Positions 9,893 to 52,692 of a DNA stretch of 63,204 nt are shown in pieces. The notes beneath the pieces were generated by a model, which was not told where the DNA came from, made no database searches, and saw only the letters and a program-made list of their open reading frames with translations. Source of the stretch: a bacterium (lineage in GTDB: Bacteria > UBA9089 > JASEIO01); contig JASEIO010000002.1 of NCBI GenBank assembly GCA_030017475.1, positions 1-63,204 on the forward strand, written 5' to 3'. The position numbers and the translations under genes were made by a program. Numbering within the stretch: position 1 is the stretch's first letter; each line of letters begins with the position of its first letter.

Positions 9893-9902
9893 ATTGATAT
9901 AA

Positions 9903-28231: not shown

Positions 28232-28855
28232 TTAGATACCGATCACTTCTCCAGTAAATAGATAGCTAAATGTAGTGACAAATCTTGAAATTATTGACCA
28301 AATAATATTAAATCCAGTCATTCTTCCAAACATAATTATAAAAAGCAAGATAAAGGGACCGAATGGCTCCAGTTTACTAAATTCATAGGCCTGTTGTCTT
28401 GGCAAAATACCCATCAAAATCTTTGAACCATCTAAAGGTGGAATAGGGATAATGTTAAATGCGCAAAGAACTAAATTTATTAAAACTGCGTACATAAATA
28501 TATATGCAAGAAGTGTGGAAAGGTTAATAAAAAAACGAAAAAGTGCTCCACATGCAAAGGCACAAATTATATTTGCCATAGGCCCTGCCAAAGAGACCCA
28601 AATTATATCGTACTTTGGGTTAGAAAAGTACTGTGGATTGATTGGGACAGGCTTTGCCCATCCAATATGGGCAATAAATAACATCAAGGTACCTATAGGG
28701 TCTAAATGGTGTAGTGGATTTAAGGTAAGGCGACCCGCATATCTTGCAGTTGGATCCCCAAGGCGATTTGCCATCCATCCATGGGCATATTCATGAATAG
28801 TAATGGCCATAAGTATTCCTGGAATGATCAAGATAAATTGTGAAAAGAAACCCAT
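28232..28855 (-). CDS. M50-family (site-2 protease-like) membrane zinc peptidase
   Basis: HExxH as ITIHEYAHGW, plus NPLHHLDPIGT and polytopic TM segments. The ATG at 28855-28853 overlaps the stop of the upstream small ORF. Confidence 0.75.
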   Translation of the reverse strand: MGFFSQFILIIPGILMAITIHEYAHGWMANRLGDPTARYAGRLTLNPLHHLDPIGTLMLFIAHIGWAKPVPINPQYFSNPKYDIIWVSLAGPMANIICAFACGALFRFFINLSTLLAYIFMYAVLINLVLCAFNIIPIPPLDGSKILMGILPRQQAYEFSKLEPFGPFILLFIIMFGRMTGFNIIWSIISRFVTTFSYLFTGEVIGI

Positions 28856-29028
28856 CAATTACCTTCCTTTGCCTTAATATAGACATAGCAATCATTACAT
28901 CTATCCTTGTTATTTCTCTTGCAACATGGTAAATCGGTTGTCTCCCAACAATCTTTACCTGTTTTATAGGCAGGACACCTTAAATAATGACTTGCTGGAC
29001 AGGTTTGAATTTCATAACACCTTTTCAT
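28855..29028 (-). CDS. Unannotated Cys-rich small protein (57 aa, 8 Cys)
   Basis: Manual translation gives MKRCYEIQTCPASHYLRCPAYKTGKDCWETTDLPCCKRNNKDRCNDCYVYIKAKEGN. The start overlaps the HD-GYP stop (ATGA) and the stop overlaps the M50 start (TGATG). It exactly fills the gap between the two genes. Confidence 0.55.
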   Translation of the reverse strand: MKRCYEIQTCPASHYLRCPAYKTGKDCWETTDLPCCKRNNKDRCNDCYVYIKAKEGN

Positions 29029-31034
29029 ACCATTTCAACCTTTTCCTTCTCTTCCTCTTCTAAAATCTCTATGAAGGCATCTACAACTTGAGGATCATAC
29101 CTTCTTTCATTCCTCAATTCCTGAATAACCTTCTCTTTTGAAAGGGCCTTTCTATATACCCTATCTGATGTCATAGCCTCATATACATCTACTACTGCAA
29201 TGATTTTTGCTATTATATTTATCTCATCACCCTTTATCGAATCTGGATATCCTGTTCCATCCATCCTTTCATGATGATGCCTCACCCCTTTATACACCTC
29301 TTCTGGAAATTCTATTGGCTGCTTTTTCATCAATTCAACCCCATTTGATGGATGCCTTTTTATAATCTCCCATTCTTCATCATTCAATTCTCCTGGCTTT
29401 TGAAGAATATTATCTGGAATATGTATCTTCCCTATATCATGTAAGATTGCAGAAATACGTGTAGCCTCAACCATATATTCTTTTAAACCAAGCCATCTTG
29501 CAATCTTCTCTGCATACATTGCTACCCTTGATGAATGTCCAAATGTGTACTCATCCCTTGCTTCAAACGCAGAGGTTAAGGTGAAGATTATGTTACCCAT
29601 CTCCCTTACCTTCTCTTCGGCTTTATCATTAATTAAGCGAATATCTTCAATTGCAACCGAAAATGTGTTACCCAATGAAGAAAGGAAGGAAAGCTCCTCT
29701 AAGGTATAGAGATCACCAGTTGACTTCTCTCCAAGACCTAAGATGCCGATTAATTTCCCTCTAAAAAACGGAACAAACAAAGTAGCTTGAAGGTTCTGGA
29801 ATAAAGGCCTAATCTTGTAAGCCTGATCTTTAAGCGAAGGATTTTCATCAAGTTCTGCCAAAAGAAGTGGTCGTTTTTCACTTGAAAGATACCTGATCAA
29901 ACCATCATTTTCCTCTATCCTTACCTTTCTTGTTCCACTTTCATTTATCCCACTACAAAACGTAACCTTATACTCCCACTTTTTCTCATCCAATAACATT
30001 AAAGAGACACCTCTAACACCCATTGGTTGCTTAACCGAACTAACTATTAATGTAAAAAGCTCATCCAGACTAAAAATAGAAGATATGCTTTCACTTAACC
30101 TCTCCAAAAACTTCTCCCTCTCAAGAGACCTCCGATAAAAAATCCTATCAATCCAAGATTGGATCCACTCCCTTGCTGGCACAAGGAAAATAGCGATCAA
30201 GAACGCCATAAAAAGGCAAATAAAAAAGGTCTCAATCCCAGTAAGCTTTCTAATTGCCCTTTCTATACACAACATACCACCAAGAAAGAAAAATGTCATA
30301 AGGGCACTCACAATAACATAAGCCGTACTCCTTCTAATTACAACCTCGATATCCATCAGGTGGTATTTGATGATAGCATAGGCTATGATTATACCATAGA
30401 TAACCGTTGCTAAATAGGCAGAATAGACAGCTGGGTATATTTTCATTACCCCAGATGCCAAAAGAAAATTAGGGACACCTCCAAATATAACTATACATAT
30501 CCCACTGAATAGAAACTTCATACGGTTCTTCTCTATGGGAGAGGTTGTCGCCCTATATTTTCTATACAAAAGATAGGTTCCATATGTGAAAAAGAACCAG
30601 AAGAATAAAATGAAAAAGTAGTTTGTTAATCCTCCTCCTACAGGATAGTAGCCTCCATATACCTTGATAGCATCCTTTACAAAAAATCCTGAGTATGTAA
30701 GAAGTAATAGAATAAGACCACCAATATATCCGAAAAGGCGTAACACTTTTTTTATCTTAGTATAATCTCCAGTAACAGCTAACACAAACTGGTAGAAGGT
30801 TATAGGTATAAAAATAACACCTATACTTAAGGCTGTTAGCCAAATTATGGCATATTCTTTAACAGGAATAAGAAATCCTCCAAGGAGTCTAAAGGACCAA
30901 ATTGCTCCGCAAATGGCAAAATAACAAAATCTCTTATTTACTTCTCTCTTTGTGCCTTTAGAAAGTACAAAGATTCCAATGAATAAAGTCAAGATACCAG
31001 CAAAAAATGGGATGATAGAATGGATGATAATCAT
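29025..31034 (-). CDS. Membrane sensor: N-terminal 7TM region, GAF domain, HD-GYP c-di-GMP phosphodiesterase domain
   Basis: About 7 TM helices in the first 290 aa, then a central GAF-like region. The C-terminus carries HDIGKIHIP...HHERMDGTGYPD, so the HD and GYP motifs are intact. Confidence 0.85.
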   Translation of the reverse strand: MIIIHSIIPFFAGILTLFIGIFVLSKGTKREVNKRFCYFAICGAIWSFRLLGGFLIPVKEYAIIWLTALSIGVIFIPITFYQFVLAVTGDYTKIKKVLRLFGYIGGLILLLLTYSGFFVKDAIKVYGGYYPVGGGLTNYFFILFFWFFFTYGTYLLYRKYRATTSPIEKNRMKFLFSGICIVIFGGVPNFLLASGVMKIYPAVYSAYLATVIYGIIIAYAIIKYHLMDIEVVIRRSTAYVIVSALMTFFFLGGMLCIERAIRKLTGIETFFICLFMAFLIAIFLVPAREWIQSWIDRIFYRRSLEREKFLERLSESISSIFSLDELFTLIVSSVKQPMGVRGVSLMLLDEKKWEYKVTFCSGINESGTRKVRIEENDGLIRYLSSEKRPLLLAELDENPSLKDQAYKIRPLFQNLQATLFVPFFRGKLIGILGLGEKSTGDLYTLEELSFLSSLGNTFSVAIEDIRLINDKAEEKVREMGNIIFTLTSAFEARDEYTFGHSSRVAMYAEKIARWLGLKEYMVEATRISAILHDIGKIHIPDNILQKPGELNDEEWEIIKRHPSNGVELMKKQPIEFPEEVYKGVRHHHERMDGTGYPDSIKGDEINIIAKIIAVVDVYEAMTSDRVYRKALSKEKVIQELRNERRYDPQVVDAFIEILEEEEKEKVEMV

Positions 31035-31630
31035 CTATAGTCTCTTCCCTTAGCTAATACACCTTTTATAAAGTTTAAAGGTAGAAGGGCGTAAACCTCT
31101 TTTTTGTATTCAATATACTCTTTCCCAAATTTCTCAATCAGTGCTTTTTCTTCTAAGTATATCCTCCAGAGTGTTATTGGAAGATAGATCAGCCAGATGA
31201 GAAGAAGTGAATAATAGGAATTTGGTATAAGGGCAAGACCAGTCATTTCGATTAAAAGACATAACAAATGGGGGTGCCTCACATATCTATATGGACCTTC
31301 CTTTATCAACCTGTGATCTTTCTTTATCTCAATATAATGACTCCAATATTTACCCAACGATTTAATGACCCATTCTCTATTAAATATACCAAAAAAATAC
31401 ATAATAAAACCAGTGGAACAAATCGCTAAATTAACTCTTCGTCTAAAAAGAAGGTATTCAATTGCACATCCAATAAATAAAACCATATACAGTATAAACT
31501 GAATAGGATAAATCGACTTTGAATATATAACCCCCTTTTCTTCCTTATTTCTACTAGTTGCAGATCTTCTCATCTGCCTATAAATAAGGGATAGAAATAA
31601 GAAGGCTATATAAAAAAGAGTAAAATTCAC
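31031..31630 (-). CDS. ICMT/PEMT-family membrane carboxyl methyltransferase-like protein (copy 1)
   Basis: LIKEGPYRYVRHPHLL...YLEEKALIEKFGKEYIEYKKEV is the ICMT-type C-terminal motif. Polytopic. Paralog of 33048..33662. GTGA overlap with the upstream gene and ATGA overlap with the downstream gene. Confidence 0.7.
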   Translation of the reverse strand: MNFTLFYIAFLFLSLIYRQMRRSATSRNKEEKGVIYSKSIYPIQFILYMVLFIGCAIEYLLFRRRVNLAICSTGFIMYFFGIFNREWVIKSLGKYWSHYIEIKKDHRLIKEGPYRYVRHPHLLCLLIEMTGLALIPNSYYSLLLIWLIYLPITLWRIYLEEKALIEKFGKEYIEYKKEVYALLPLNFIKGVLAKGRDYR

Positions 31631-32046
31631 TCTAATCCCCCTTCGACCCTTTTTTTAACACATCTCAATGTATTATTACCTATTTTCTTTAAAATTCTAG
31701 CTACAATTGGCTCTAAAATAAGTTTACCTAACGATATCTTATAATTAAAATTATGAACTAAGGTCATTTTTGTTCCCTCAAGTGTCTCTTCAAACCTCCA
31801 TTCAGCTATTAAACCCCTTAAAGGACCTTCAAGCTGTTTAGATCTCATCAATCTATCTTTAATAGTAATAATAGACCTCCATTTAATCATTCCCTCTCTC
31901 TTAATCATTATTCTGTTTCCCTCTTTGCTAATAATATCCATTTTTCTATGAGATGACAAAAACTCAGGCCATCTTTCTACATCAGCCATCACCTGAAAAA
32001 CCTTATCAATATCTCCCTTGATCACAATTGAATTTTCAATATGCAA
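31627..32046 (-). CDS. SRPBCC (polyketide cyclase/dehydrase, START-like) protein (copy 1)
   Basis: 139 aa. SIVIKGDIDKVFQVMADVERWPEFL...LEGPLRGLIAEWRFEE. Clear paralog of 36078..36533. Apparent TTG start behind AAGGGGGA. Confidence 0.7.
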   Translation of the reverse strand: MHIENSIVIKGDIDKVFQVMADVERWPEFLSSHRKMDIISKEGNRIMIKREGMIKWRSIITIKDRLMRSKQLEGPLRGLIAEWRFEETLEGTKMTLVHNFNYKISLGKLILEPIVARILKKIGNNTLRCVKKRVEGGLE

Positions 32047-32101
32047 TATTTATATCCCCCTTCTCTTTACTCCTCCTCCCAATTTTCACTAAACCTTTCC
32101 T

Positions 32102-32356
32102 TCAATCCTCTTGAGAATCCTTATTTGATTTAGAAGCAGGAACAATAAGCTTTATCATTGCTTCATGTTGTTTAATCATTGCTTCATGCTGATCAGATAA
32201 CTTTGCCATCAATTCTCTTGTAGCCTTCCCTTCACTCTTTATTAACTCTCCTATATATCTTTTAATACTTCTACCGTTTATCCATGCAGATAGAGTAAGG
32301 AATACACCAAGAATCGTAAATCCACCAAATATGGCACCTACAATAGAACCTGTCAT
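32102..32356 (-). CDS. Small single-TM repeat protein (paralog C; altered C-terminus)
   Basis: N-terminal TM followed by an NGR motif, then the HEAMIKQ HEAMIKL tandem (21-nt repeat, 32154-32195). Start trimmed to ATG 32356, behind AAGGAGTGG. Confidence 0.5.
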   Translation of the reverse strand: MTGSIVGAIFGGFTILGVFLTLSAWINGRSIKRYIGELIKSEGKATRELMAKLSDQHEAMIKQHEAMIKLIVPASKSNKDSQED

Positions 32357-32371
32357 TTTAAAATCCACTCC

Positions 32372-32635
32372 TTATCCCTTTGCGAGTACCTTTATAAGCT
32401 CAATCACTTCACAATGTCTCTCTTCTGCCCGTTCATCCATCCCTCTAAATCCTTGATCTATCTTCTCACCAGGCATCCTTGTTGTTGTATCTATCTTATC
32501 ACCAAGCGTTCTTGTTGTTATATCTATCTTCTCGAGCACCCTTCCATTCTGTTTCAATACTCTTCCCATGAGAATAGAAAGATATGCACCGAGTACAGCA
32601 AGGTATATCCCCAAAAATAATTGAAATAGATCCAT
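32372..32635 (-). CDS. Small single-TM repeat protein (paralog B)
   Basis: N-terminal TM, an NGR motif, and the 11-aa tandem KIDITTRTLGD/KIDTTTRMPGE/KID (33-nt repeat, 32456-32535). SD AGGAGGAAAGGG. Confidence 0.5.
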   Translation of the reverse strand: MDLFQLFLGIYLAVLGAYLSILMGRVLKQNGRVLEKIDITTRTLGDKIDTTTRMPGEKIDQGFRGMDERAEERHCEVIELIKVLAKG

Positions 32636-32737
32636 TCCCTTTCCTCCTCTTTACGAATGCTTTTAGAGATGAAGTACATCACTTCCTTCGTCATAATATA
32701 CAGTTGACCCAATTTTTACTCCTCCTCCCAGTTTTTA

Positions 32738-33022
32738 CTAAACCTTTCCTTCAATCCTCTCCAATATCTTTGTCTGATTCAGAAGCATCTGAGCTAATCT
32801 CTCTTGTCCTTGCTCAATCATCTTAGCCATTTCTCTTTGTCCTTGAGCTAATACCTCAAATCCTTTCTCCTGTCCCTTTTCAACTCGTTCTAAGACAAAC
32901 ATCATACTGTTTAAACCTGCCATTATATCCATCTGAAGCCTTCCATTACTCTTCCAGATGTAAGCAAAAATTAGACCCAAAAGGGTTAGGCTTAAACCTA
33001 CTATACCTATAGCAATCTCCAT
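32738..33022 (-). CDS. Small single-TM repeat protein (paralog A)
   Basis: N-terminal TM, an NGR motif, and a Q/E-rich coiled-coil-like tail (EKGQEKGFEVLAQGQREMAKMIEQGQERLAQ). SD GGAGGA. Confidence 0.55.
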   Translation of the reverse strand: MEIAIGIVGLSLTLLGLIFAYIWKSNGRLQMDIMAGLNSMMFVLERVEKGQEKGFEVLAQGQREMAKMIEQGQERLAQMLLNQTKILERIEGKV

Positions 33023-33047
33023 ATTTTTTATCCTCCAAATATATCCT

Positions 33048-33662
33048 TTAAGATCCTTTACGAGATATCCTCTTCAAAGGTAAAAATGCATAGACCTCCT
33101 TTTTATAATTAAGGTATTCATCACCAAATTTCTCAATCATTGCTTTCTCCTCTAAATATGCCCTATAGATAACAAAAGGGATAAAAATAAACAAGGTAGC
33201 GATTAATGAATAATAGGCGTTAGGTATAATGGTAAGGCCAATTGTTTCAATTGTTACACAAAAGGATAATGGATGTCTCATATATCCATATGGACCACTC
33301 TTTATTAATTTATGATCTTCCATTATCTTAATGTCCGGACTCATATATTTCCCTAATGCAACCACTGCCTTTGCCCTAACTGGTATTACGGATACATACA
33401 TCAATAACCCTATTCCACTTAAGATCAAATTAACCCTGACCCGTGTAGATATGATGTATCTACAATAAAAGTATTCTAAGATTGCTCCAACAGCTATTAT
33501 AAGGTAAAGGGCAAGTAAGATGGGATATGTTAATCCTGCATAGACCTTCCCTTCATGTGGTTCAACCTCATAGGACTTGAGTAGTCTCCGTATTCGATAG
33601 ATAATAGATATAACAATAAAACCTATGTATAGTTGGGTAAAGTATTGATGGATAAGATTCAT
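33048..33662 (-). CDS. ICMT/PEMT-family membrane carboxyl methyltransferase-like protein (copy 2)
   Basis: LIKSGPYGYMRHPLSF...YLEEKAMIEKFGDEYLNYKKEV. Paralog of 31031..31630. The ORF-track GTG at 33671 was trimmed to ATG 33662, behind GAGGTGG. Confidence 0.7.
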   Translation of the reverse strand: MNLIHQYFTQLYIGFIVISIIYRIRRLLKSYEVEPHEGKVYAGLTYPILLALYLIIAVGAILEYFYCRYIISTRVRVNLILSGIGLLMYVSVIPVRAKAVVALGKYMSPDIKIMEDHKLIKSGPYGYMRHPLSFCVTIETIGLTIIPNAYYSLIATLFIFIPFVIYRAYLEEKAMIEKFGDEYLNYKKEVYAFLPLKRISRKGS

Positions 33663-33680
33663 CCATGCCACCTCTAATCT

Positions 33681-36038
33681 TTAAATATCCACATCTCTTA
33701 TAATTAAAACTGTATTTTTGCCACCAAATCCAAAAGAATTTGACACAGCTACCTTAATATTACTTTCACGTCCAACATTTGGAACATAATCAAGATCACA
33801 TTCAGGATCAGGATTTTCAAGGTTAATGGTGGGGTGAATGAAATTATTTTGCATTTCTAAGACAGAGGCTATTAACTCAATAGCCCCTGTTGCCCCTATT
33901 GAATGGCCAATCATAGATTTAATAGAATTTATAGGCAATTTATAGGCATAATCACCAAAAACTTGCTTGAGAACCTTAGTTTCTATCTTATCTCCTAATG
34001 GAGTAGATGAACCATGAGCACTAATATAATCTACATCTTCTATATTCAAATTGGCATCTTGTAAAGCCAATTTTATAGCTCGAGCTGCCTGTGTTCCATC
34101 AGGAGAAGGGGAAGTCATATGATAGGCATCTCCTGATACACCATAACCAACCACCTCTGCATAAATAGGAGCTCCTCGCTTTAGGGCATGTTCTAATTCC
34201 TCTAAGATTAATATACCTGCTCCCTCAGACAATACAAAGCCATCCCTTTCTCTATCAAAAGGACGGGATGCCTTCTCTGGTTCATCATTACGAGTGGATA
34301 AAGCCCTTATTGCCTGGAATGAAATAATAACAAGAGGTCTCATAGGGGCTTCAGTCCCACCTGTAACCATCAGATCAACTTCTCCATTCCTTATCTTATT
34401 AAAGGAATAGCCAATAGCATCTGCACCAGCTGTACATCCTGTGGAAATAGTGAAACTTGGTCCTTTTACACCCAAATTTATTGAAACCTCAGACGAAATA
34501 GCTCCAGCAAAAATAACTACAGATAGATAAGGGCTGACCCTCTCCGGTCCTTTCTCAAGATAGGTTTTATACTGGTCTTCTCCAAATCCCAATCCTCCTC
34601 CTCCTGCCCCAATAATAACTCCAATTCTGTGAGGATCAAGTTTCCTTATATCTTCTAAATTGGCATCTTTTAAAGCCATTTGAGCAGCTGCAATAGCAAA
34701 TTGGGTCTCTCTACCACTATGCCTTATCTTTTTTTTATCTATCCAATTTAAGGGATCAAACTCAGTATTTCGGATCTCTCCTCCAATCTTTACCTTTAAA
34801 TCGGATGTATCAAAACTCTCTATTCTTCTTATACCAGATCTACCTTCCTTAACTGCTTCCCAAAATGCATCCTTTCCGATTCCAATTGGGGTGATTACAC
34901 CTAATCCAGTAATTACTACCCTTCTTTTTATCCCCTCTTTTTCTCTTTTAACAGAGGTAAATGTCCTTATCCTATCTTCTCCTTTCTTTTTTGCCCAAGA
35001 GAAAGCCTCCTCAACCCTTTTTATTAACATTTCAGGGGTTTTAATCTCTTTAGAGAGACTTGCTACCCCAAAGGTGGAGGTTATAGATATATTTAGATCT
35101 TTATCTTTCAAGAACACCCAACCCTTTATAATCTTCCTCAATCTTTCTGCTACCTCATAGGTCCTTTCCTCTGGTGTATTTGGTAGAATAATCATAAACT
35201 TCTTCCCGCCTACCCGGGTTAATATCTCGGATTTTCTAATATTTTTTAAAATGAGGCAAGCAAATTCCTTTAGAACCTGATCCCCAATTAGATGACCATA
35301 GGTCTGATTAATCTCTTCAAGACGGTCTATATCAAGCAATATCAAGGAAAGGTTCGAATTATATCTTTCTGCTCGGGCTATTTCTCCCTCCAAGCGAGCA
35401 ATCAGGTATCTTTTATTATGTAATGATGTCAAATCATCAATCATCAATAATCCATCCTTTTCTTCAATTAGCTTTATGAATCTATCTGCACTTTCCTGGA
35501 GACGATAGTAGCGAGAGATGGTTTCTGAGAAAGGCTTAATTAATGCCATTAACATCTTCCCACCGATAAGCAACTGGTCTCTTGATACCCTCCTAATCAA
35601 CTGCAAATTCATCAATAGATCATTCTCCGAAACCCCAATTTCTTTAGCAAATCTCCGACATCTTTCATAAACTGCCTCCTCTTCTAAAACCCCACCCATT
35701 AAAATAGCTCCTATTGGCTTTTCCTGAAGAACCAATGACACGGAAAAGTTGAGTAAACCTGCAGGACATTTAAAAATAGAAAAACCTTCTTCTATACTCT
35801 CTGAAGAAAAACAATTCATTCTGTAGGATTGGCAGCACCTTATTTGGCCAATCTTTGATGACTGGATAAGACGACACGCCTTGTGCAGATGCTGAAAACC
35901 AGCTATAAACCTTCCATCTTTATCTACAAACTGGGCCTTTGTGCCAGTTATCTCATGACACACATCCTGAATATTTTCCCATTGATTAAGTAAGTTTACC
36001 AAATCTGATAGATCAACAGGAGGGGTTTCTTTAGTCAT
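33681..36038 (-). CDS. Three-domain fusion: PocR-like sensor, degenerate GGDEF (GGKKF), KAS I/II-type beta-ketoacyl synthase
   Basis: PocR pattern (FKCPAGLLNFSVSLVLQEKPIGAILMGG). GGDEF fold (DDLTSLHNKRY...LLDIDRLEEINQTYGHLIGDQVL...RKSEILTRVGGKKF). Full ketosynthase (RRVVITGLGVITPIG...TGCTAGADAIGY...SAHGSSTPLGD...MIGHSIGATGAIE). The ATG at 36038 is preferred over the GTG at 36050. Confidence 0.85.
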   Translation of the reverse strand: MTKETPPVDLSDLVNLLNQWENIQDVCHEITGTKAQFVDKDGRFIAGFQHLHKACRLIQSSKIGQIRCCQSYRMNCFSSESIEEGFSIFKCPAGLLNFSVSLVLQEKPIGAILMGGVLEEEAVYERCRRFAKEIGVSENDLLMNLQLIRRVSRDQLLIGGKMLMALIKPFSETISRYYRLQESADRFIKLIEEKDGLLMIDDLTSLHNKRYLIARLEGEIARAERYNSNLSLILLDIDRLEEINQTYGHLIGDQVLKEFACLILKNIRKSEILTRVGGKKFMIILPNTPEERTYEVAERLRKIIKGWVFLKDKDLNISITSTFGVASLSKEIKTPEMLIKRVEEAFSWAKKKGEDRIRTFTSVKREKEGIKRRVVITGLGVITPIGIGKDAFWEAVKEGRSGIRRIESFDTSDLKVKIGGEIRNTEFDPLNWIDKKKIRHSGRETQFAIAAAQMALKDANLEDIRKLDPHRIGVIIGAGGGGLGFGEDQYKTYLEKGPERVSPYLSVVIFAGAISSEVSINLGVKGPSFTISTGCTAGADAIGYSFNKIRNGEVDLMVTGGTEAPMRPLVIISFQAIRALSTRNDEPEKASRPFDRERDGFVLSEGAGILILEELEHALKRGAPIYAEVVGYGVSGDAYHMTSPSPDGTQAARAIKLALQDANLNIEDVDYISAHGSSTPLGDKIETKVLKQVFGDYAYKLPINSIKSMIGHSIGATGAIELIASVLEMQNNFIHPTINLENPDPECDLDYVPNVGRESNIKVAVSNSFGFGGKNTVLIIRDVDI

Positions 36039-36077
36039 ATTATTCACCACCCTTTGTTTGAAATCCTTAAAGAATCT

Positions 36078-36533
36078 TCATCCTCTACGTCCTATCTGAA
36101 GACCTTCCTCTACCTTCCTCTTGACTCCCTCTAAGGTCTGGGTAGCCATCTTCTTTACAATTCGCGAAACAATCAGTCTTCCAATCAGATTTCCAATCAA
36201 AGGAACCTTCTTATATTCAAAGTCATGTGTTAAAACTATCCTTGTCCCATCATCTATTTCCGCAAACTTCCATTCTATCTTCATACCTTTTAGCGGACCC
36301 TCTAACTGCTCTGCCTTAATTAACCTTTTATCCTTATCCACAAAAACACGGGACCTCCACTTATAGCCAGCTTCACTTTCTCGCTCAACTATCATTTCCG
36401 GTCCCTCTTTACTTAAAATCCTTACCTCTTTATAGGTAGGTATAAATTCAGGATATCTTTCCACATCCGAAGATATTTCAAAAACCTCATCCACATTTCC
36501 TTTAATCACGATTGTATCTTCTGTATGTATCAT
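36078..36533 (-). CDS. SRPBCC (polyketide cyclase/dehydrase, START-like) protein (copy 2)
   Basis: TIVIKGNVDEVFEISSDVERYPEFI...LEGPLKGMKIEWKFAE. Paralog of 31627..32046. The ATG at 36533 lies 1 nt after the cyclase stop, behind GAGGAG. Confidence 0.7.
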   Translation of the reverse strand: MIHTEDTIVIKGNVDEVFEISSDVERYPEFIPTYKEVRILSKEGPEMIVERESEAGYKWRSRVFVDKDKRLIKAEQLEGPLKGMKIEWKFAEIDDGTRIVLTHDFEYKKVPLIGNLIGRLIVSRIVKKMATQTLEGVKRKVEEGLQIGRRG

Positions 36534-36534
36534 T

Positions 36535-37362
36535 TTACTCCTCAATTATTGCAACTGGTCTTACCCAACCAGCACCTGCCCTCTCAATATTTACTGGAAA
36601 ACAAACTACCTTAAAACCAAAAGGCTTGGGAAGCCGGTCTAAATTTCCCATCTTTTCTATATGACAATATTCCTTCTCCCTTCCAGCAAAATGGGCCGGC
36701 CAAAGGTATCTTTTATCTCGAGTTCTTATATAATCCGTAAACATATTCACCCAAGGCCGATCAAAACCAAATGCATCAATCCCTATTATCTTCACACCTT
36801 GTTCTACTAAGAATAGGGTCGCCTCCTTTGACATCCCAGGTTGAAAAAGAAGATAGTCCCTATCTTCTAAATATTTATCCTGTCCAGTTCTAATAAGCAC
36901 GATGTCATATGGCTTAATTTTGTAATCTATTCTCTCTAATGCCTCTTTTATATCATCCGCCGTTATAAACTCCCCTGGTTTTTTATGCGTTAAGTCAAGA
37001 AGAACACCATCTGCGAAACACCATTCAAGTGGAACCTCCTGGATGGTCTTTGAGGGTTTTCCACAAGAGCGGGGACCAAAATGCCATGGGGCATCAAGAT
37101 GTGTTCCAGCATGGGTATCCGTCTTTATCACCTCTAAGGCTATACCCATTCCATTAGGGAAGTTTTTTGCTGTAATTCTGTATCTTCCTACTAAATAAAG
37201 GAAGAAATTCTTAACATGATCAAAAAACGATCTTCCTTTACAAAGCACTGCCCCTAAACCAAGAAGTAACGCCCCTCTTTTATGGTCTATATATTTAATC
37301 TTGGGTGGGTCAGGCTCATGTCCACCACTACGTAAAGGAACACTTAAATCAATGAGTTTCAT
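36535..37362 (-). CDS. Cyclase-family protein (kynurenine formamidase-like fold)
   Basis: TDTHAGTHLDAPWHF metal-binding motif and overall size. The ORF-track TTG start was trimmed to ATG 37362, behind GGAGGTGG. Confidence 0.75.
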   Translation of the reverse strand: MKLIDLSVPLRSGGHEPDPPKIKYIDHKRGALLLGLGAVLCKGRSFFDHVKNFFLYLVGRYRITAKNFPNGMGIALEVIKTDTHAGTHLDAPWHFGPRSCGKPSKTIQEVPLEWCFADGVLLDLTHKKPGEFITADDIKEALERIDYKIKPYDIVLIRTGQDKYLEDRDYLLFQPGMSKEATLFLVEQGVKIIGIDAFGFDRPWVNMFTDYIRTRDKRYLWPAHFAGREKEYCHIEKMGNLDRLPKPFGFKVVCFPVNIERAGAGWVRPVAIIEE

Positions 37363-37442: not shown

Positions 37443-39644
37443 TTACCCTCTATCCCGGAAGTTGTCAATAATATAGTTTAGTTGTTCCTGTTTTGTGGAA
37501 ATCTTTCCATCAATTTTAGCGTATAACAACTCCTTTACAATCTCTTTATATAGTGGTCCAGGTTTTATTCCCAGTCTTTTTAAATCCTCTCCCGAAACAT
37601 CTACACTTACATTTCTCAAATCACCAATGAATTTTATAATTCGTTCCTTTATTAAATCACCACTTTTATATCTAACCTCTGCTTTGGAAATCATGAATAT
37701 AAGTACTTCTATTGGAATGCCTTTAAGCATCTTATAGATAGAACTTGCAGAAAGCTCTTCTTTTTGCAAGGCAATAATCAGTTTATCGCTCATATGCTTG
37801 GCAAGTAACACCTTCTCATTTTGTGATTTAGTAAACTTAAACCTTTTTATCACATCCCGGAGCTCCTCTAAATTTAACCTATCTACTAAACATAGAAAAT
37901 AGATCAGGAAACATTCTATTTTTTCTTCAATAACCACTTGTAGATTAAAGATGGTATCTTGAATGCTACGGAACATTAAAGCAAGTTTTTTCGTAACCCT
38001 TATCTTTGGATGTATATATTTAAGTACTCCAAACTCAGCCAATCGTGAAATAGCTGGGAAAGGGTCCTCCTCAGATAATACTAAAATCAATTCATCCCGG
38101 AATCTCTCTTTACCCAAATACTTAAATACTTCGGATTTTACAGCTTTATTGATAAGTGAAACCGTCTCTTCATCAAGTAGGAAATTGTGTCTTTTTTCAA
38201 ACCTCACTGCACGAAAGATTCGGGTTGGATCATCATAAAAACTCAAATTATGCAACACCTTAATGATTCTTTCTTTAAGATGTATCTGCCCTCCAAAAAA
38301 ATCTATCAAATTGCCAAAATATTTTCTATTAAGCTGAACAGCCATAGCATTGATAGTAAAATCTCGCCTATACAAATCCTCTTTTATTGTACCATAGGTA
38401 ACTATTGGCAATACAGCAGGTCTCGTATAGATCTCTTTCCGAGCGGATGCTACATCGAGTTTAAAACCCCAAGATAAGGTAACCACTGCAGTTTTAAACA
38501 TCTTATGAACCTTTGCCTTCCCCCCTGAACATGCCGCAAAAACCCGAGCAAATCTAATTCCATCACCATCTACCACAATATCTATATCAAAATTCTCTTC
38601 CCCTAATAACAAATCCCTTACAAATCCACCAACCACATATGTTGGATAATTCAAAGAATCTGAAACACGGGATATTTCCCGAAATAGACTCTTAATCTTT
38701 TTAGGAAGTCTTTCCATTAGATCCTTAACATTTTGGGTTTCAAAAAGTATGTTTAATAATCTATCCTCTATTTCTTTCAAATCCCGTTTTAAAATAGTAG
38801 TTGATGCAGCTCCGCTATGCCCCCCTCCATTAAATCGTGAAAGCACCTTTCTAACATCCACCTCTTTCTTTCTTGATCTGGCTATTAGATGGATCTTCCC
38901 ATCCACCTCTATTATAGTAAATAAAGCATCGGGCTTTTCAATGTCCATTATTTTATGAACTACGACTGCTAAATCAGGAATGTAATTTGAAATTTTGGTG
39001 GAGGCGACAGCTACCCAAGCCCCATTTATAAAATGGCACTTTAGATTATGTAACAGCTCATCAAGCAGCGAAACCTGCTCTTTGGTTAATTCCTGATTTG
39101 CAAAGCGAGCTACCAGGTTTAAATCAGCATTACACTTTAGTAGATAAGCCACTGCCTCAAGATCTTTTGGAGTGGTGGTAGGAAAGGTAAGGCAGCCTGT
39201 ATCAGAATAGATACCAAGGCAAAATATAGTAGCTTCCATAGGGGTAATACTTAAATCCCGTGATCTTATCAAATCCAACAGAATAGTAGCTGTTGCTCCA
39301 AGTTCTTCTGTAACCATTATATCTCCTTTAATATCGTTTGCCTTCGAAGGATGATGGTCATAAATATAGATAGGAATTCTTTTTTCAAGTAACTCTTTAA
39401 ATTTACCTATTCTACCTGGAAGCCTTGTATCCACAATAATAACCTTTTTTACCCTATCTATTTCTATATCCTTATGTTTCTCTATATTCGGAAGATGATG
39501 ATTGTAAACTTTTATAAAGTCTTTTACCCCACGTTCTGCATTTCCTGGTAAAACCAGGTGTGCCTTTGGGTATAATTTCTTTGCTGCTAATAAACTTGCC
39601 AAGGCATCAAAATCGGCATTAGTATGAGTAACAATAATCTCCAC
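37443..39644 (-). CDS. cca: DHH/DHHA1 phosphoesterase domain fused to a tRNA nucleotidyltransferase (CCA-adding/poly(A) polymerase family)
   Basis: N-terminus VTHTNADFDALASLLAAKKLYP (DHH) and GGGHSGAAS (DHHA1). The C-half has VVGGFVRDLLLG...DIDIVV and RRDFTINAM head-domain motifs. GTG start. Confidence 0.8.
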   Translation of the reverse strand: MEIIVTHTNADFDALASLLAAKKLYPKAHLVLPGNAERGVKDFIKVYNHHLPNIEKHKDIEIDRVKKVIIVDTRLPGRIGKFKELLEKRIPIYIYDHHPSKANDIKGDIMVTEELGATATILLDLIRSRDLSITPMEATIFCLGIYSDTGCLTFPTTTPKDLEAVAYLLKCNADLNLVARFANQELTKEQVSLLDELLHNLKCHFINGAWVAVASTKISNYIPDLAVVVHKIMDIEKPDALFTIIEVDGKIHLIARSRKKEVDVRKVLSRFNGGGHSGAASTTILKRDLKEIEDRLLNILFETQNVKDLMERLPKKIKSLFREISRVSDSLNYPTYVVGGFVRDLLLGEENFDIDIVVDGDGIRFARVFAACSGGKAKVHKMFKTAVVTLSWGFKLDVASARKEIYTRPAVLPIVTYGTIKEDLYRRDFTINAMAVQLNRKYFGNLIDFFGGQIHLKERIIKVLHNLSFYDDPTRIFRAVRFEKRHNFLLDEETVSLINKAVKSEVFKYLGKERFRDELILVLSEEDPFPAISRLAEFGVLKYIHPKIRVTKKLALMFRSIQDTIFNLQVVIEEKIECFLIYFLCLVDRLNLEELRDVIKRFKFTKSQNEKVLLAKHMSDKLIIALQKEELSASSIYKMLKGIPIEVLIFMISKAEVRYKSGDLIKERIIKFIGDLRNVSVDVSGEDLKRLGIKPGPLYKEIVKELLYAKIDGKISTKQEQLNYIIDNFRDRG

Positions 39645-40716: not shown

Positions 40717-41721
40717 CTACTCAACCTTTACTACATCATTGATCTTAAAACCTTGCCCTGATTTAATAACAGAGATTGAATATCCATCTTCTACATCTAT
40801 AACTTGAATTTCTCCAGATCTCTTCATTTCAAACCCTAAACCTTCCCCTGTTAAAGGATCAATTATCTCTTCGCCCAATGAATAGACAGTGAATATATCA
40901 CCAACCTTTGTTCCAACAGATGATCCACAATTTATATAAAATTTGTCTCCCTCAATCTTTATAATCCTTCCTTTTAAAAGAACTTTCTTTACATCTTCTC
41001 CATATTCCTTCTTTTTAGCCTTTTCGACCTCTTTACGCTCCCCATAATAAGGATAATGAGCCCTTCTAAAAGCCTCAGTAACTTTTTTAACAGCTTGATT
41101 TATTGCAAGTCTTGTTGCCTTTCCTATAGTTGTGCGGTTAAACTCCTTATCTCCAAAATCCATTCTTTGCAACTTAGTTAAATCAGACTCCGCAACTCTA
41201 CCTCTCCTCCTTAATTTCTTTGACACTTGTCCTTCAGCAGTTTCAGTGGCAAGGATATTTCCAGTCCCTGGATCAATTATCTTTATATCTAACTTAACCT
41301 TAGCTACCTCTGGCACTACCCTAACACGTCCCCTAACTTGCCCTTCCTGTTCCTTTATCTCAAATTCATCCACATCCCCTGTAATAATTGCATCCACTCC
41401 CAATATCTCTTTTACTATAGCAGCATATTGAGAGATAGCCTCTGGAGAAAATCCTAAGGCCTGCCCTTTAAATCTTTCCCTTTTTTCTATAACTACAAAG
41501 TCCTCTGATTCTACTAAAGCCTCAGTTAACTCATTAGCCATTCCTTTTCCTATATCCCAAAAGCTTGAGAATGTTCTATCTGTTTTATCTTCGAAAGCAA
41601 TTACAGTAACTAACCTCTTAGGAATTTCCTGCTCTATTCTTCTACCTCTAACACCAACTCTCACGCAACCAACAACCATTATTAAAATTAATAAATTGGC
41701 AATAAATATCTTTCGATTCAC
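40717..41721 (-). CDS. Lipoprotein, CsgG/LpoB-like N-domain plus C-terminal beta domain
   Basis: Lipobox (IMVVGC). VTVIAFEDKTDRT...GMANELTEALVESEDFVVIEKRE...AIITGDV resembles CsgG-family lipoproteins. The family assignment is tentative. Confidence 0.45.
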   Translation of the reverse strand: MNRKIFIANLLILIMVVGCVRVGVRGRRIEQEIPKRLVTVIAFEDKTDRTFSSFWDIGKGMANELTEALVESEDFVVIEKRERFKGQALGFSPEAISQYAAIVKEILGVDAIITGDVDEFEIKEQEGQVRGRVRVVPEVAKVKLDIKIIDPGTGNILATETAEGQVSKKLRRRGRVAESDLTKLQRMDFGDKEFNRTTIGKATRLAINQAVKKVTEAFRRAHYPYYGERKEVEKAKKKEYGEDVKKVLLKGRIIKIEGDKFYINCGSSVGTKVGDIFTVYSLGEEIIDPLTGEGLGFEMKRSGEIQVIDVEDGYSISVIKSGQGFKINDVVKVE

Positions 41722-43190: not shown

Positions 43191-43955
43191 TTATTTATTA
43201 TAGGTTTCTTCAATAAAGCCAATTGCTTTTTTGGCAATAATTTTCCCTGCTTCATCTTCAGGAATAATCACTTCATCAGCACCAGCTGATCTTACAACTC
43301 GAAGATATCTCGATTTCCCAACCCTTGTAATTATCCTTACCTCTGGGTTAAGATTTTTGGCTGTAATTGTAATGTATAGGTTATCCGGATCGTTATCGAT
43401 CAATACCAAAATCCCTTTTGCCTTTATGATTTGAGCTTGAAGTAAAACCCCTCTTCTTCTTGCATCTCCATTTATAACCAATTTTCCTTCTTCGAGTAAG
43501 GATTTAACTAAGCTTTCATCATTCTCAATAACCACAAATGGGATCTTATTTTCTGTAAGATTTTCTACAACAGTCCTTCCAACTTGTCCATAACCACAAA
43601 TAATTAAATGATTTTCGAGTTTCTCCAATCTAAGTTGATTTTTCATTTTTAACCACACCCCTTTTCCTTCCCCTTTAAAGAAACTGCGAAAAAATCTTTC
43701 AACTATCCAAATCCCTGAGAAGTATATTCCAAGGGTAACAAAAACAGAAAAGATTTTAGTTATTGACTGGATTTGGGCATTTGCAATGGCGGATCGATTA
43801 ACTAACCAGAATAATGCATCAATGAAAGAGATATGTTCCAAATGCATAAAGCCAAGTATAGATATAGATAGAAAGCACAACAGGAATAAGACTGGTAGTA
43901 GAAGAATCTTAATCAAAAACCATAAAGCTACGTTAAATGCAAATCTACTTTTCAT
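43191..43955 (-). CDS. Ion-channel-like membrane protein with an RCK/TrkA-N domain and a degenerate selectivity filter
   Basis: TM segments, then a pore-helix-like FIDALFWLV followed by NRSAIANAQI where TVGYGD is expected. Rossmann motif LIICGYGQVGRTV (TrkA-N). The ATG overlaps the upstream stop (ATGA). Confidence 0.65.
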   Translation of the reverse strand: MKSRFAFNVALWFLIKILLLPVLFLLCFLSISILGFMHLEHISFIDALFWLVNRSAIANAQIQSITKIFSVFVTLGIYFSGIWIVERFFRSFFKGEGKGVWLKMKNQLRLEKLENHLIICGYGQVGRTVVENLTENKIPFVVIENDESLVKSLLEEGKLVINGDARRRGVLLQAQIIKAKGILVLIDNDPDNLYITITAKNLNPEVRIITRVGKSRYLRVVRSAGADEVIIPEDEAGKIIAKKAIGFIEETYNK

Positions 43956-45922: not shown

Positions 45923-45925
45923 CTA

Positions 45926-46765: not shown

Positions 46766-46776
46766 AAATCTGTGAT

Positions 46777-48351: not shown

Positions 48352-48358
48352 ATAATTC

Positions 48359-52322: not shown

Positions 52323-52455
52323 AATTTCCTCTTCATCCTTCTAACAATGAAAACCTTCAACCACCTATATCGACCAAGCAGAAACTAAAGATTTTATGAA
52401 TTGTCCTACTATCTCATTATTAGCTATTGTTCTTGGTAGTGTTTTGAATTTTGGA

Positions 52456-52477
52456 TTTCGGTCATTCGGATTTAGAT
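52456..52477. repeat. TTYGGTCATTNGRATTT motif, copy 3
   Basis: TTTCGGTCATTCGGATTTAGAT in the divergent intergenic region, about 135-155 nt upstream of the HlyD-family gene. Confidence 0.5.
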
Positions 52478-52635
52478 TCCTCAAAGATAGTATTTTTATA
52501 ATAACATATCATATTATAGTATAGGATTGCAACAAAAAAATTAGTATGCAGGGTATGCCTCAGAGCTATCAGGTGTAAGATATCCTTTTTCTGTCATTCC
52601 ATAACTTGGACATTACGAAAAGGTGGAATTTTCAC

Positions 52636-52664: not shown

Positions 52665-52692
52665 TTACAAGATATTTTAATGACATACCATA

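Follow-up and report, generated by a model that had tools for sequence, protein, structure and literature searches.

Do twelve genes that follow one another on the minus strand of this DNA form a functional unit, and what would such a unit make and sense? The initial annotation of the window (the whole 63,204-nucleotide stretch analysed here) proposed an operon linking a lipid- or polyketide-like pathway to c-di-GMP turnover, as a module for making and perceiving a signal lipid. The literature searched yielded no description of this module. Read 5' to 3' on the minus strand, the genes are:

36535-37362, minus strand: cyclase-family (PF04199) metal-dependent hydrolase (Pfam Cyclase, 3.3e-37)
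about 36078-36545, minus strand: SRPBCC/START-fold protein 1 (Polyketide_cyc, 1.7e-17)
33681-36050, minus strand: 789-aa fusion of PocR (~35526-35990), degenerate GGDEF (~34974-35444) and FabF-clade KS (~33684-34925) domains (Pfam)
33048-33671, minus strand: ICMT-family membrane methyltransferase 1 (Pfam ICMT/PEMT)
32738-33022, 32372-32635 and 32102-32368 (block 32102-33022), minus strand: three small single-pass TM/coiled-coil ORFs
31627-32046, minus strand: SRPBCC/START-fold protein 2 (Polyketide_cyc, 6e-12)
31031-31630, minus strand: ICMT-family membrane methyltransferase 2 (Pfam ICMT, 8e-19)
29025-31034, minus strand: HisKA_7TM-GAF-HD-GYP (HD_5) membrane receptor, predicted c-di-GMP phosphodiesterase (Pfam)
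28855-29028, minus strand: 57-aa ORF with 8 Cys, with ATGA and TGATG overlaps
28232-28858, minus strand: small M50 (site-2-protease-type) intramembrane metalloprotease (Peptidase_M50, 1.3e-12)

ORF and Pfam checks recover all twelve frames with the domains originally proposed, and every close junction described earlier (TAA-A-ATG, GTGA, ATGA twice, TGATG) can be read in the sequence. The remaining gaps are 3-102 nt long and contain Shine-Dalgarno-like sequences; no terminator-like sites were found in the cluster's intergenic gaps. The reported lack of an ACP also holds, an ACP HMM having no match among the 488 six-frame ORFs of the whole 63-kb window, as does that of CLF, KR and AT domains in the cluster (Pfam). 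Co-directionality carries no weight, because nearly all long ORFs from 1 to ~52 kb lie on the minus strand. It is conservation in other genomes, and not the window, that takes the case beyond chance.

Our neighbourhood search used ICMT as an independent anchor. All related loci (numbered L001 onwards) lie in uncultivated MAGs, and the system is known from sequence alone. Neighbourhood conservation, on which the initial annotation had staked its proposal, is found in at least three other MAG lineages, where the cyclase, SRPBCC, ICMT, PocR-KS (with or without the degenerate GGDEF) and 7TM-GAF-HD-GYP proteins occur together in shuffled order. Conserved neighbourhoods with rearranged gene order are those of L091, L092/L093, L095, L090 and L006, among them:

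L091: Cyclase, FadL, SRPBCC, ICMT, ICMT, PocR-degenerate GGDEF-KS, 7TM-GAF-HD-GYP
L092/L093: HD-GYP receptor, Cyclase, PocR-KS, SRPBCC, SRPBCC, ICMT, 7TM-GAF-HD-GYP
L095: Cyclase, SRPBCC, PocR-degenerate GGDEF-KS, ICMT, FadL, 7TM

A smaller core, in which a distinct FabF-like KS clade adjoins a HisKA_7TM(-GAF) sensor, is present in about a dozen loci. This special KS lies beside such a sensor in 12/12 anchored loci versus 2/80 generic FabF loci (p about 1e-11 to 1e-13), and the two exceptions belong to the same KS clade. A chance arrangement of unrelated genes in a gene-dense region coded on one strand, forming no functional unit, would fit the single orientation kept across ~52 kb and the lack of conservation of some members, namely the small TM block, the Cys-rich ORF and the M50 gene. 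It is nevertheless contradicted by the neighbourhood analysis, both by the specific KS-7TM pairing and by the recurrence of five families together, in differing orders, in independent MAGs; we regard it as highly improbable. Assembly chimeras of one contaminant are unlikely to explain the related loci, because identities range from 28 to 64% and the loci were recovered in different studies.

The twelve-gene extent has to be given up, since none of the related loci contains a counterpart to five of its ORFs. The small TM ORFs have good RBS sequences upstream, share an N-terminal TM segment and an NGR motif at a mutual identity of only ~20%, and have no family match; a 73-nt repeat joins the first and third ORFs at their 3' ends. 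Related loci gave no tblastn match to them at 1e-4, and at 1e-3 the sole match was 29 residues of the second ORF in L002 (E 6e-4), most likely by chance. This block is a lineage-specific insert outside the conserved module. Also outside it is the Cys-rich ORF, coupled translationally to both neighbours and without a match in Pfam, NCBIfam or, by tblastn, the related loci. The M50 protein has HExxH and LDG motifs and likewise no tblastn match in the related loci. The real module is 29025-37362, which we read, at roughly even chances of being right, as a loop of lipid-signal synthesis and perception with c-di-GMP feedback on the synthase.

At its centre stands the fusion, whose full-length architecture recurs in only 7 clusters at 50% identity among 1.84 billion representatives. 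Its KS scores 560 bits against a TIGR03150 fabF cutoff of 494 and conserves Cys539, His, Lys711 and His716, the Cys-His-His site being intact. In L094, the cluster KS lies beside a complete fabH-fabD-fabG-acpP-fabF set and shares 55% identity with the window KS, versus 40% for the housekeeping FabF; the window KS is a second, dedicated KS. Being above the FabF equivalog cutoff, it could just elongate ordinary acyl-ACPs, which counts against our reading. The GGDEF motif is degenerate (GGKKF), with RKSE five residues upstream, at the I-site position. Across the fusions compared, the active site is lost in 11/11 and Rxx[D/E] at that spacing is kept in 10/11, which bears out the suggestion of a receptor-like domain. 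The same pattern, a dead active site with Rxx[D/E] retained, is seen in PssE-type I-site receptors (PMC4125290). Binding of c-di-GMP remains putative, and the window and most relatives have RxxE rather than RxxD at the I-site position, a further point against our reading. As for the PocR domain, its predicted ligands are small hydrocarbon derivatives (Anantharaman and Aravind 2005, as reported in PMC5847659).

The receptor has intact HDIGK and HHERMDGTGYP motifs and looks like an active HD-GYP enzyme, as had been supposed. Full-length orthologues (28-36% identity) adjoin the KS in L001, L003, L007, L088, L091 and L092, and the same 7TM-GAF input is fused to histidine-kinase or GGDEF outputs in L002, L004, L011, L090, L094 and L096. 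One input with HD-GYP, histidine-kinase or GGDEF outputs is the pattern expected of sensors for one ligand class.

The tailoring enzymes are less easily assigned. The proposed metal-dependent cyclase belongs to PF04199, with HAGTHLDAPWH for the HxGTHxDxPxH motif and orthologues (43-61% identity) in L091, L092 and L095, but its closest solved structures are metal-dependent hydrolases and isatin hydrolase. We found no precedent for a PF04199 'cyclase' as a releasing enzyme, and this too weighs against our reading. SRPBCC protein 1 matches 1t17 (a conserved hypothetical protein, which we take to be START-fold and Coq10-like), ZhuI and TcmN at about 1e-9 to 1e-11, and is 55% identical to the SRPBCC directly upstream of the fusion in L006. 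Protein 2 is 46% identical to protein 1 and 54% to an SRPBCC flanked by two ICMT genes in L090; others occur in L091, L092, L095, L023 and L075. Protein 1 retains Tyr35 of TcmN and has Val in place of Arg69. The cyclase-dehydrase role first attributed to these proteins is doubtful because both lack this catalytic Arg of TcmN-type aromatase/cyclases, which also weighs against our reading; they more probably serve to bind or carry lipids. The two ICMT proteins are 46% identical. The first is 64% identical to the ICMT after the fusion in L095; the second matches Ma-ICMT (4a2n) at 1.8e-15, and its stop overlaps the receptor start (ATGA). ICMT/7TM-receptor gene overlaps also occur in L090, L092 and L094 (four lineages including the window). 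Enzymes of this family, BpsB/DquB, O-methylate polyketide-derived lipids (PMC9827899).

Sister clusters contribute off-loading chemistry. They encode a dedicated ACP with a distinct DDLGIDSF motif, together with one of three unrelated thioester reductases (AAR-like, 6jzu, 2e-25; TIGR01746; OleD/HpnA-like) or a 4HBT thioesterase, which implies that the product leaves fatty-acid synthesis. The window cluster contains no ACP, reductase or thioesterase, an absence counted against our reading. In sister KS enzymes, PilZ or REC replaces the degenerate GGDEF, and the regulatory domain matches the output of the neighbouring sensor:

L004: PilZ-KS with 7TM kinase and REC-HD-GYP
L096: REC-KS with histidine kinases
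window, L001, L003, L007, L088, L091: degenerate GGDEF-KS with 7TM-GAF-HD-GYP

The resemblance to DSF signalling noted at the outset is reinforced by clusters combining KS, ACP, thioester reductase, 7TM histidine kinase and REC-HD-GYP.

The main rival is a membrane-lipid homeostasis loop, similar in logic to DesK-DesR or FabF-based thermal control. Here the 7TM-GAF sensors would monitor the bilayer, whether its composition or some physical property, and control c-di-GMP or phosphorylation accordingly, switching a regulated FabF paralogue and hence acyl-chain length or type, while ICMT, SRPBCC and cyclase proteins would modify or traffic membrane lipids, with no diffusible signal. The KS score and the want of a dedicated ACP in the window suit this account, as do the minimal relatives (L001, L002, L003, L007, L088), which have the fusion and 7TM-GAF sensors only, no tailoring enzymes, and suggest a regulated FabF isozyme more than they do a signal synthase, to the detriment of our reading. 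One run in L096 contains an Aas-like acyl-ACP:phospholipid acyltransferase with MGDG-synthase-like and LpxL-like (glycolipid) genes, which points to membrane lipids; the ICMT/PEMT superfamily includes lipid A and phospholipid methyltransferases (weak LmtA matches); and membrane perturbation is known to feed into c-di-GMP modules (PMC12834913). Against it stand the free product implied by the sister ACPs, reductases and thioesterase, and the hydrocarbon-derivative sensing predicted for the KS-borne PocR. FadL-type proteins are outer-membrane channels for hydrophobic molecules, and their presence (FadL/Toluene_X) in L006, L090, L091, L094 and L095 suggests that a free hydrophobic molecule crosses the outer membrane. 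We consider homeostasis possible, though the less probable account.

These channels and the PocR prediction would also suit an exogenous hydrophobic compound, imported by FadL, sensed by PocR and 7TM-GAF, and elongated, detoxified or incorporated by the KS, hydrolase and methyltransferases, with c-di-GMP adjusting motility versus matrix; microcompartment shell genes adjoining the L091 cluster point the same way. We think this unlikely: there is no FadL within 63 kb in the window, its cluster has no acyl-CoA/acyl-ACP ligase, beta-oxidation or oxygenase genes, and a condensing enzyme would be odd for catabolism.

In the lipid-signal loop that we favour, what stands of the initial annotation is the conserved set, the receptor-like GGDEF, the active-looking HD-GYP and the DSF-like logic, shorn of the twelve-gene unit and the cyclase-dehydrase role. 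We infer the product and its signalling role as follows. The dedicated KS would condense an acyl thioester with malonyl-ACP that primary metabolism supplies, and the PF04199 hydrolase may release or cyclise the beta-keto product. The two ICMT-type enzymes would O-methylate it to a methyl ester, or a methyl ether of a pyrone or phenolic lipid, rendering it neutral and membrane-soluble, and the SRPBCC/START proteins could bind the lipid and hand it over. Within the membrane, the 7TM-GAF input of the adjacent receptor would read this hydrophobic molecule, or the resulting membrane state, and set HD-GYP activity and so c-di-GMP. The latter may in turn act back on the synthase via its catalytically inactive GGDEF domain, with PocR contributing a small-molecule input. 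The flagellar and Pel-like genes of the same window would be plausible downstream outputs.

Twelve minus-strand ORFs occupy 28232-37362, all where the initial annotation had placed them, and the domains it had assigned are borne out by Pfam and NCBIfam:

Genes of the cluster (window coordinates; domains from Pfam/NCBIfam where a family is named)
36535-37362, minus strand: PF04199 'cyclase'
36078-36545, minus strand: SRPBCC/Polyketide_cyc protein (SRPBCC1)
33681-36050, minus strand: fusion of PocR, GGDEF and ketoacyl-synthase (KS) domains, 789 aa
33048-33671, minus strand: ICMT/PEMT methyltransferase (ICMT1)
32738-33022, 32372-32635 and 32102-32368, minus strand: three small TM proteins without family (sTM1-3)
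31627-32046, minus strand: SRPBCC protein (SRPBCC2)
31031-31630, minus strand: ICMT methyltransferase (ICMT2)
29025-31034, minus strand: HisKA_7TM, GAF and HD_5 receptor
28855-29028, minus strand: 57-aa ORF with 8 Cys (Cys57)
28232-28858, minus strand: Peptidase_M50

The junctions previously described (TAA-A-ATG, GTGA, ATGA, ATGA and TGATG) can all be read in the sequence; the other gaps measure 3-102 nt, with Shine-Dalgarno-like motifs, and GC content is even throughout the cluster. A promoter/terminator scan of the window gave a signal at background level, with zero terminator-like sites in the intergenic gaps of the cluster, and Rfam and tRNA scans of the whole window returned no matches. 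The tight junctions and the lack of terminator-like sites between genes are indirect evidence for a putative single transcript. Co-directionality is uninformative here, since almost every long ORF between 1 and ~52 kb lies on the minus strand. The two ICMTs are paralogues (46% identical), as are the two SRPBCC proteins (likewise 46%). The three small TM proteins resemble each other only in a TM segment at the N-terminus and in an NGR motif; family searches with these and with the Cys-rich ORF gave nothing usable.

The initial annotation had proposed looking for this neighbourhood in related genomes, and the gene set does recur, in shuffled order, in loci L091, L092/L093 and L095:

Gene order at loci related to the cluster
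L091 (GCA_054018775.1): cyclase, FadL, SRPBCC, ICMT, ICMT, fusion of PocR, degenerate GGDEF and KS, 7TM-GAF-HD-GYP
L092/L093 (GCA_017973795.1 / GCA_017973895.1): 7TM-GAF-HD-GYP, cyclase, PocR-KS (without GGDEF), SRPBCC, SRPBCC, ICMT, 7TM-GAF-HD-GYP
L095 (GCA_040753085.1): cyclase, SRPBCC, fusion of PocR, degenerate GGDEF and KS, ICMT, FadL, 7TM and further
L090 (GCA_030019105.1): FadL, then after an interval ICMT, SRPBCC, ICMT, 7TM-GAF-kinase
L006 (closest relative, 58% identity): FadL, SRPBCC, fusion, end of a short contig
L001, L003, L007 and L088: proA, fusion, HEAT-repeat protein, HisKA_7TM-GAF-HD-GYP, several 7TM-GAF-GGDEF paralogues
L002: fusion, 7TM-GAF-histidine kinase

L095 has its first four cluster genes in the order of the window. 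Relative to the window proteins, the cyclases are 43-61% identical, the SRPBCC proteins 35-55%, the ICMTs 45-64%, the fusions (or their KS part) 42-57% and the receptors 32-36%; in the window, L090, L092 and L094 the ICMT gene overlaps that of the receptor. The window-type clusters were found by anchoring on ICMT2, independently of the fusion; a word-based protein search had missed their fusions. ICMT, SRPBCC and cyclase genes are absent from L001, L002, L003, L007 and L088, and the view drawn from fusion-anchored loci alone, that these genes are not conserved, was overturned by the ICMT2-anchored clusters. A profile search of metagenome contigs with the PocR-GGDEF part alone gave one further true fusion locus, L088. 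When the KS start was included in a profile search of genome contigs, the result was dominated by the KS N-terminal motif (at least ~80 loci, mostly housekeeping FabF), with no full-length PocR-GGDEF-KS fusion among the matches listed; these FabF-motif loci, at least 80, were reused as background, and the Nitrospirota and Gemmatimonadota variants described below come from them.

Comparative genomics strongly supports a predicted functional linkage of the module genes. The extent of the unit is smaller than the twelve genes first proposed: for sTM1-3, Cys57 and M50 the related loci contain no counterpart at 1e-4, and at 1e-3 the only match is 29 residues of sTM2 in L002 (E 6e-4), most likely due to chance. 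This leaves 29025-37362 as the conserved module, interrupted by a lineage-specific insert at 32102-33022, while Cys57 and M50 are either translationally coupled passengers or belong with trpS.

Several local features accompany these genes. A 73-nt direct repeat (86% identical, 32066-32138 and 32715-32787) spans the 3' ends of sTM1 and sTM3 plus downstream intergenic sequence and points to local duplication or recombination inside the insert; the second small TM gene contains a 33-nt tandem duplication (32456-32521) and the third a 21-nt one (32151-32191). Cys57 (28855-29028), coupled translationally to the HD-GYP receptor (ATGA) and to M50 (TGATG), matches no family and is missing from the related loci; it may bind metal as a mini-protein, or serve the intramembrane protease M50 as substrate or partner. 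A HEAT-repeat protein of ~200 aa with weak CpcE/NblB-like matches stands between fusion and receptor in L001 (12457-13056), L003, L007 and L088; the window is without it. In L091, microcompartment shell genes (BMC, EutN/CcmL; 5840-6473) lie directly upstream of the window-type cluster of GCA_054018775.1, which is of interest since PocR is named after a propanediol-utilisation regulator, but may be coincidence.

At the centre of the module stands the ketosynthase fusion. Its KS is a full-length domain with a Cys-His-His triad and a conserved Lys, and scores 560.1 bits against TIGR03150 (fabF; residues 376-785), above the equivalog cutoff of 493.75; the catalytic set (C539, the His of AHGSST, K711 and H716) is kept in the window and in nearly all relatives. 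A housekeeping FabF was nevertheless rejected: the domain lies outside any fab/acpP operon, in a window without fab genes or ACP, is fused to PocR and a degenerate GGDEF, and groups in a clade of its own, which in L094 is present alongside a housekeeping FabF. The PocR domain retains its three invariant cysteines. The full-length architecture is rare (7 clusters at 50% identity among 1.84 billion representatives, besides a handful of shortened forms); the fusion homologue search gave seven same-architecture clusters at 42-58% identity.

The GGDEF signature of the window fusion reads GGKKF, and the active-site motif is degenerate in 11/11 fusions with a GGDEF; with GG[D/E]EF destroyed in this way, an active diguanylate cyclase was rejected. 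RKSE occupies the I-site position, exactly five residues upstream of GGKKF, which is the spacing in the motif definition (RxxD five residues upstream of a degenerate signature; PMC4125290). Rxx[D/E] is kept at this position in 10/11 fusions: the window and 7 of the 10 further fusions with a GGDEF have RxxE, and L091 and L095 alone have RxxD. Known I-site receptor GGDEFs, PssE of Listeria and the Pel-activating receptor of P. aeruginosa (PMC4125290; 10.1101/768473), likewise combine a degenerate GG[D/E]EF with Rxx[D/E] five residues upstream and are attached to, or control, a biosynthetic machine. Here, however, the controlled enzyme would be a ketosynthase and not an exopolysaccharide synthase, and c-di-GMP binding is putative.

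The remaining enzymes recall type II PKS sets in combining a KS, SRPBCC proteins, a 'cyclase'-family protein and O-methyltransferases. The cyclase-family protein scores 128 bits against PF04199 (cutoff 23.1), which we take to include ZhuJ as well, and presents the metal motif HxGTHxDxPxH as HAGTHLDAPWH; its closest solved relatives are metal-dependent hydrolases and isatin hydrolase. As an arylformamidase equivalog it was rejected, with 28 bits where the cutoff is 223. The best PDB matches of SRPBCC1 include ZhuI and TcmN, at a similarity of ~1e-9 that is comparable for 1t17, a conserved hypothetical protein and presumably a Coq10-like START protein. In TcmN/ZhuI-type aromatase/cyclases, the TcmN pocket residues Tyr35 and Arg69 are important; aligned to 2res, SRPBCC1 keeps the equivalent of Tyr35 and has Val for Arg69; a true aromatase/cyclase was rejected on this ground, and the 'cyclase-dehydrase' role named initially is doubtful. 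Compared with systems using the ring cyclases TcmN ARO/CYC, ZhuI (SRPBCC) and ZhuJ (PMC6110711), the cluster thus differs in the SRPBCC pocket and in the kinship of its cyclase-family protein, and also in its FabF-like KS. The earlier verdict that this is not a standard type II PKS was right: there is a single KS, the aromatase Arg is absent, and the 63-kb window encodes no CLF and no ACP, a hidden ACP having been looked for.

The ICMT domains score 68.3 and 50.6 bits (cutoff 24), and ICMT2 matches the solved Ma-ICMT 4a2n at 1.8e-15 over residues 8-184. The canonical ICMT reaction is carboxyl methyl-esterification of a lipidated substrate. Other members of the family, BpsB and DquB, O-methylate polyketide-derived lipids (PMC9827899). 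The receptor has intact HD-GYP motifs (HDIGK and HHERMDGTGYP; HD_5 at 125 bits) and is, by motif criteria, a predicted c-di-GMP phosphodiesterase. Of the six other cluster-linked HD-GYP proteins checked, all have HHExxDGxGYP and five have HD.GK, the downstream receptor of L092 being unmatched for the latter.

Sister KS proteins, ~50-55% identical within the KS, are joined to other signalling domains. PilZ-KS (570 aa) has RxxxR, followed by a second motif that is canonical in one homologue, P0017 (NLSSDG), and variant in the L004 protein (NLGSEG); REC-KS (535 aa) has a normal acidic pocket. Their neighbourhoods are as follows:

Loci with sister KS proteins
L004/L005: PilZ-KS, ACP, acyl-ACP-reductase homologue (6jzu 2e-25; TIGR04058), HisKA_7TM kinase, REC-HD-GYP
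L096: Aas-like acyltransferase, SRPBCC fused to an AAR-like reductase of the L004 type, kinase, REC, REC-KS, ACP, 4HBT thioesterase, 7TM-GAF kinase, REC, HD-GYP, glycolipid/lipid A-type genes
L011 (Nitrospiraceae MAG): KS, ACP, thioester reductase (TIGR01746 / NAD_binding_4), 7TM-GAF kinase, GAF-PAS kinase, REC-HD-GYP
L094, one strand: complete fabH-fabD-fabG-acpP-fabF set
L094, divergent: KS, FadL, B12-radical SAM, ICMT, OleD/HpnA-like reductase, 7TM-GAF kinase, sigma-54 regulators
L023 and L075 (Gemmatimonadota MAGs): SRPBCC, KS, GGDEF-EAL

The cluster KS of L094 shares 55% identity with the window KS, against 40% for the housekeeping FabF of that locus. Across the sister clusters the dedicated ACPs have the motif DDLGIDSF, as opposed to the housekeeping DDLGADSL. 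A neighbour-joining tree of 93 KS sequences, without bootstrap and hence indicative, groups the sensor-associated KS together, apart from the bulk of housekeeping FabFs. The domain fusion of L096 (5834-7402, SRPBCC with an AAR/PigE-N-like acyl-ACP-reductase domain, within the REC-KS cluster) physically links a window-type SRPBCC to acyl-thioester chemistry. The B12-binding radical SAM enzyme between FadL and ICMT in L094 (8652-10034) matches lipid-biosynthesis, hopanoid-methylase and P-methyltransferase families, a hint that the lipid product of that lineage is C-methylated. Two proteins of ~870 aa, P0008 and P0012, were rejected as sensor fusions, being tandem KS-KS (KS/CLF-like) didomains; they come from Chloroflexota-like contigs, and the first of their two KS domains is a close relative of the window KS clade.

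A HisKA_7TM gene stands beside KS or ICMT in 12/12 anchored loci versus 2/80 generic FabF-motif loci among the matches listed (Fisher's exact test, p = 2.5e-13, or 8.7e-11 with related lineages collapsed; indicative only, as the loci are not fully independent), and both exceptions, L011 and L041, belong to the special KS clade. A coincidental juxtaposition of genes, to which the initial reading would have been reduced, is highly improbable beside this association and the recurrence of the gene set.

We infer both the product of the module and its signalling role. Our preferred model, which we consider about evenly balanced between right and wrong, is a loop of lipid-signal synthesis and perception with c-di-GMP feedback onto the synthase. 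Across the family, the regulatory domain on the KS would pair with the output of the adjacent sensor: a kinase with REC-KS; a kinase acting through REC-HD-GYP on c-di-GMP with PilZ-KS; and 7TM-GAF-HD-GYP, also through c-di-GMP, with the degenerate GGDEF-KS. This match suggests that the sensor controls the synthase, and the presence of one 7TM-GAF input on three different outputs suggests a single ligand class. Dedicated ACPs, three non-homologous thioester reductases, a thioesterase and FadL together suggest a released, neutral, hydrophobic product; in window-type clusters the hydrolase and ICMT would release and neutralise it, as the reductases would elsewhere. A more novel version, with a substantial though less than even chance of being right, is a self-contained lipid autoinducer circuit with c-di-GMP feedback, in which a dedicated family of 7TM-GAF lipid receptors would be combined with a KS gated directly by c-di-GMP (via the dead GGDEF or PilZ), by phosphorylation (via REC) and by a small molecule (via PocR). 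The signal-lipid reading first proposed from the window is supported in part: it stands as to linkage, with its twelve-gene extent and some enzyme roles revised.

The main rival is a homeostat for membrane lipids: the sensors would read the state of the bilayer and tune a FabF paralogue. It accounts for the minimal clusters without tailoring genes, the FabF-grade KS scores, the window's lack of an ACP and the phospholipid and glycolipid genes of L096; set beside the features that suggest a released product, we regard it as less likely than the preferred model. A role in processing exogenous lipids appears improbable. In open-access papers and preprints we found no description of SRPBCC, ICMT and KS clusters, of PocR-, GGDEF-, PilZ- or REC-ketosynthase fusions, or of a HisKA_7TM ligand.

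By analogy, the logic of the module would come closest to DSF signalling, a resemblance already noted initially. To our knowledge, Rpf synthases carry no second-messenger or phospho-receiver domains, unlike the KS here. DSF systems comprise RpfF/RpfC/RpfG in Xanthomonas and RpfF/RpfR (BDSF) in Burkholderia and Cronobacter (PMC4504480, PMC5391125, PMC4698668). There as here, a fatty-acid-pathway enzyme for a lipid signal (here putative) is encoded beside a membrane sensor and an HD-GYP (or GGDEF-EAL) c-di-GMP enzyme: L004, L011 and L096 combine a membrane kinase with REC-HD-GYP, two-step as in RpfC/RpfG, and in L023 and L075 the KS adjoins a GGDEF-EAL protein, as in RpfF/RpfR. The likeness is one of logic and the module is not an Rpf system, since the synthase is a FabF-clade ketosynthase whereas RpfF is a crotonase, a domain that is absent among the cluster proteins. 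The input here is HisKA_7TM-GAF. Apart from HD-GYP, the parts compared, those of the synthase, differ; in the window, sensor and HD-GYP form one polypeptide. The methyltransferases suggest a methylated product, whereas DSF is a free cis-2-enoic acid.

PhcB/PhcS (3-OH-PAME/MAME) in Ralstonia and CqsA/CqsS (CAI-1) in Vibrio are further membrane-kinase-sensed autoinducer systems, for methyl-ester and hydroxyketone signals. With the loop proposed here they would share neutral fatty-acid-derived signals, one of theirs methyl-esterified, and multi-pass membrane sensors. Their outputs are phosphorelays, versus the direct c-di-GMP hydrolysis predicted here, and we know of no relation between their synthases, methyltransferase class or sensors and the cluster parts. 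SrsA/SrsB in S. griseus pairs a polyketide synthase with an ICMT-like methyltransferase, as do the phenolic-lipid pairs BpsA/BpsB in B. subtilis and DquA/DquB in Sporomusaceae (the latter two in PMC9827899). Such pairs share with the cluster a condensing enzyme and membrane ICMT-family O-methylation of a long-chain product, but rely on a type III PKS rather than a type II (FabF-like) KS and are without the SRPBCC, PF04199 hydrolase and c-di-GMP receptor found here; their products count as lipids of membranes or cysts rather than as signals.

The flagellar and Pel-like loci reported earlier are indeed in the window: flagellin, FlgK and FapA at 949-13226, and a PelF-like glycosyltransferase (DUF3492 and GT1) at 48359-49855 with DUF2194, OEP and HlyD neighbours. 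The stretch from the cluster to the PelF-like gene contains, at 40717-41721 and 43952-48468, a CsgG-like lipoprotein gene and a pair of large ORFs without Pfam match (656 and 563 aa), which may be part of a matrix locus. Just upstream of the cluster (37443-39644) lies an unusual 733-aa fusion of DHH-DHHA1 (nanoRNase/pApase-type phosphoesterase) with a PolyA_pol/CCA-adding head; DHH/DHHA1 enzymes include pGpG-degrading ones and, if of that kind, the fusion would by analogy be relevant downstream of HD-GYP. The coding strand flips from minus to plus at ~52300-52700 and GC skew changes sign around 52-58 kb, with no dnaA among the ORFs checked that flank the switch. TrpS homologues give a weak placement, the best named matches being Candidatus Ratteibacteria (64%) and Desantisbacteria (59%), the latter a name that ICMT homologues bear as well.

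We rate the module as a candidate case of lipid-derived signalling coupled to c-di-GMP. Should the self-contained autoinducer circuit prove true, a previously unrecognised quorum-sensing-like system would extend over several uncultivated phyla, and we know of no earlier example of a condensing enzyme for lipids or polyketides under allosteric control by c-di-GMP. If the signalling reading is correct, HisKA_7TM-GAF would become a new receptor-ligand family. The targets of c-di-GMP, so far polysaccharide synthases, flagellar and pilus machinery and transcription factors, would gain a new class, a lipid-building enzyme. The compact fusions with separable domains would offer a ready experimental system, in which the sister PilZ-KS and REC-KS are natural controls for second-messenger control of C-C bond-forming enzymes. 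A homeostat run through c-di-GMP would likewise be a new regulatory principle. For candidate phyla seen only in metagenomes, the module would point to lipid-based cell-cell or membrane-state signalling.
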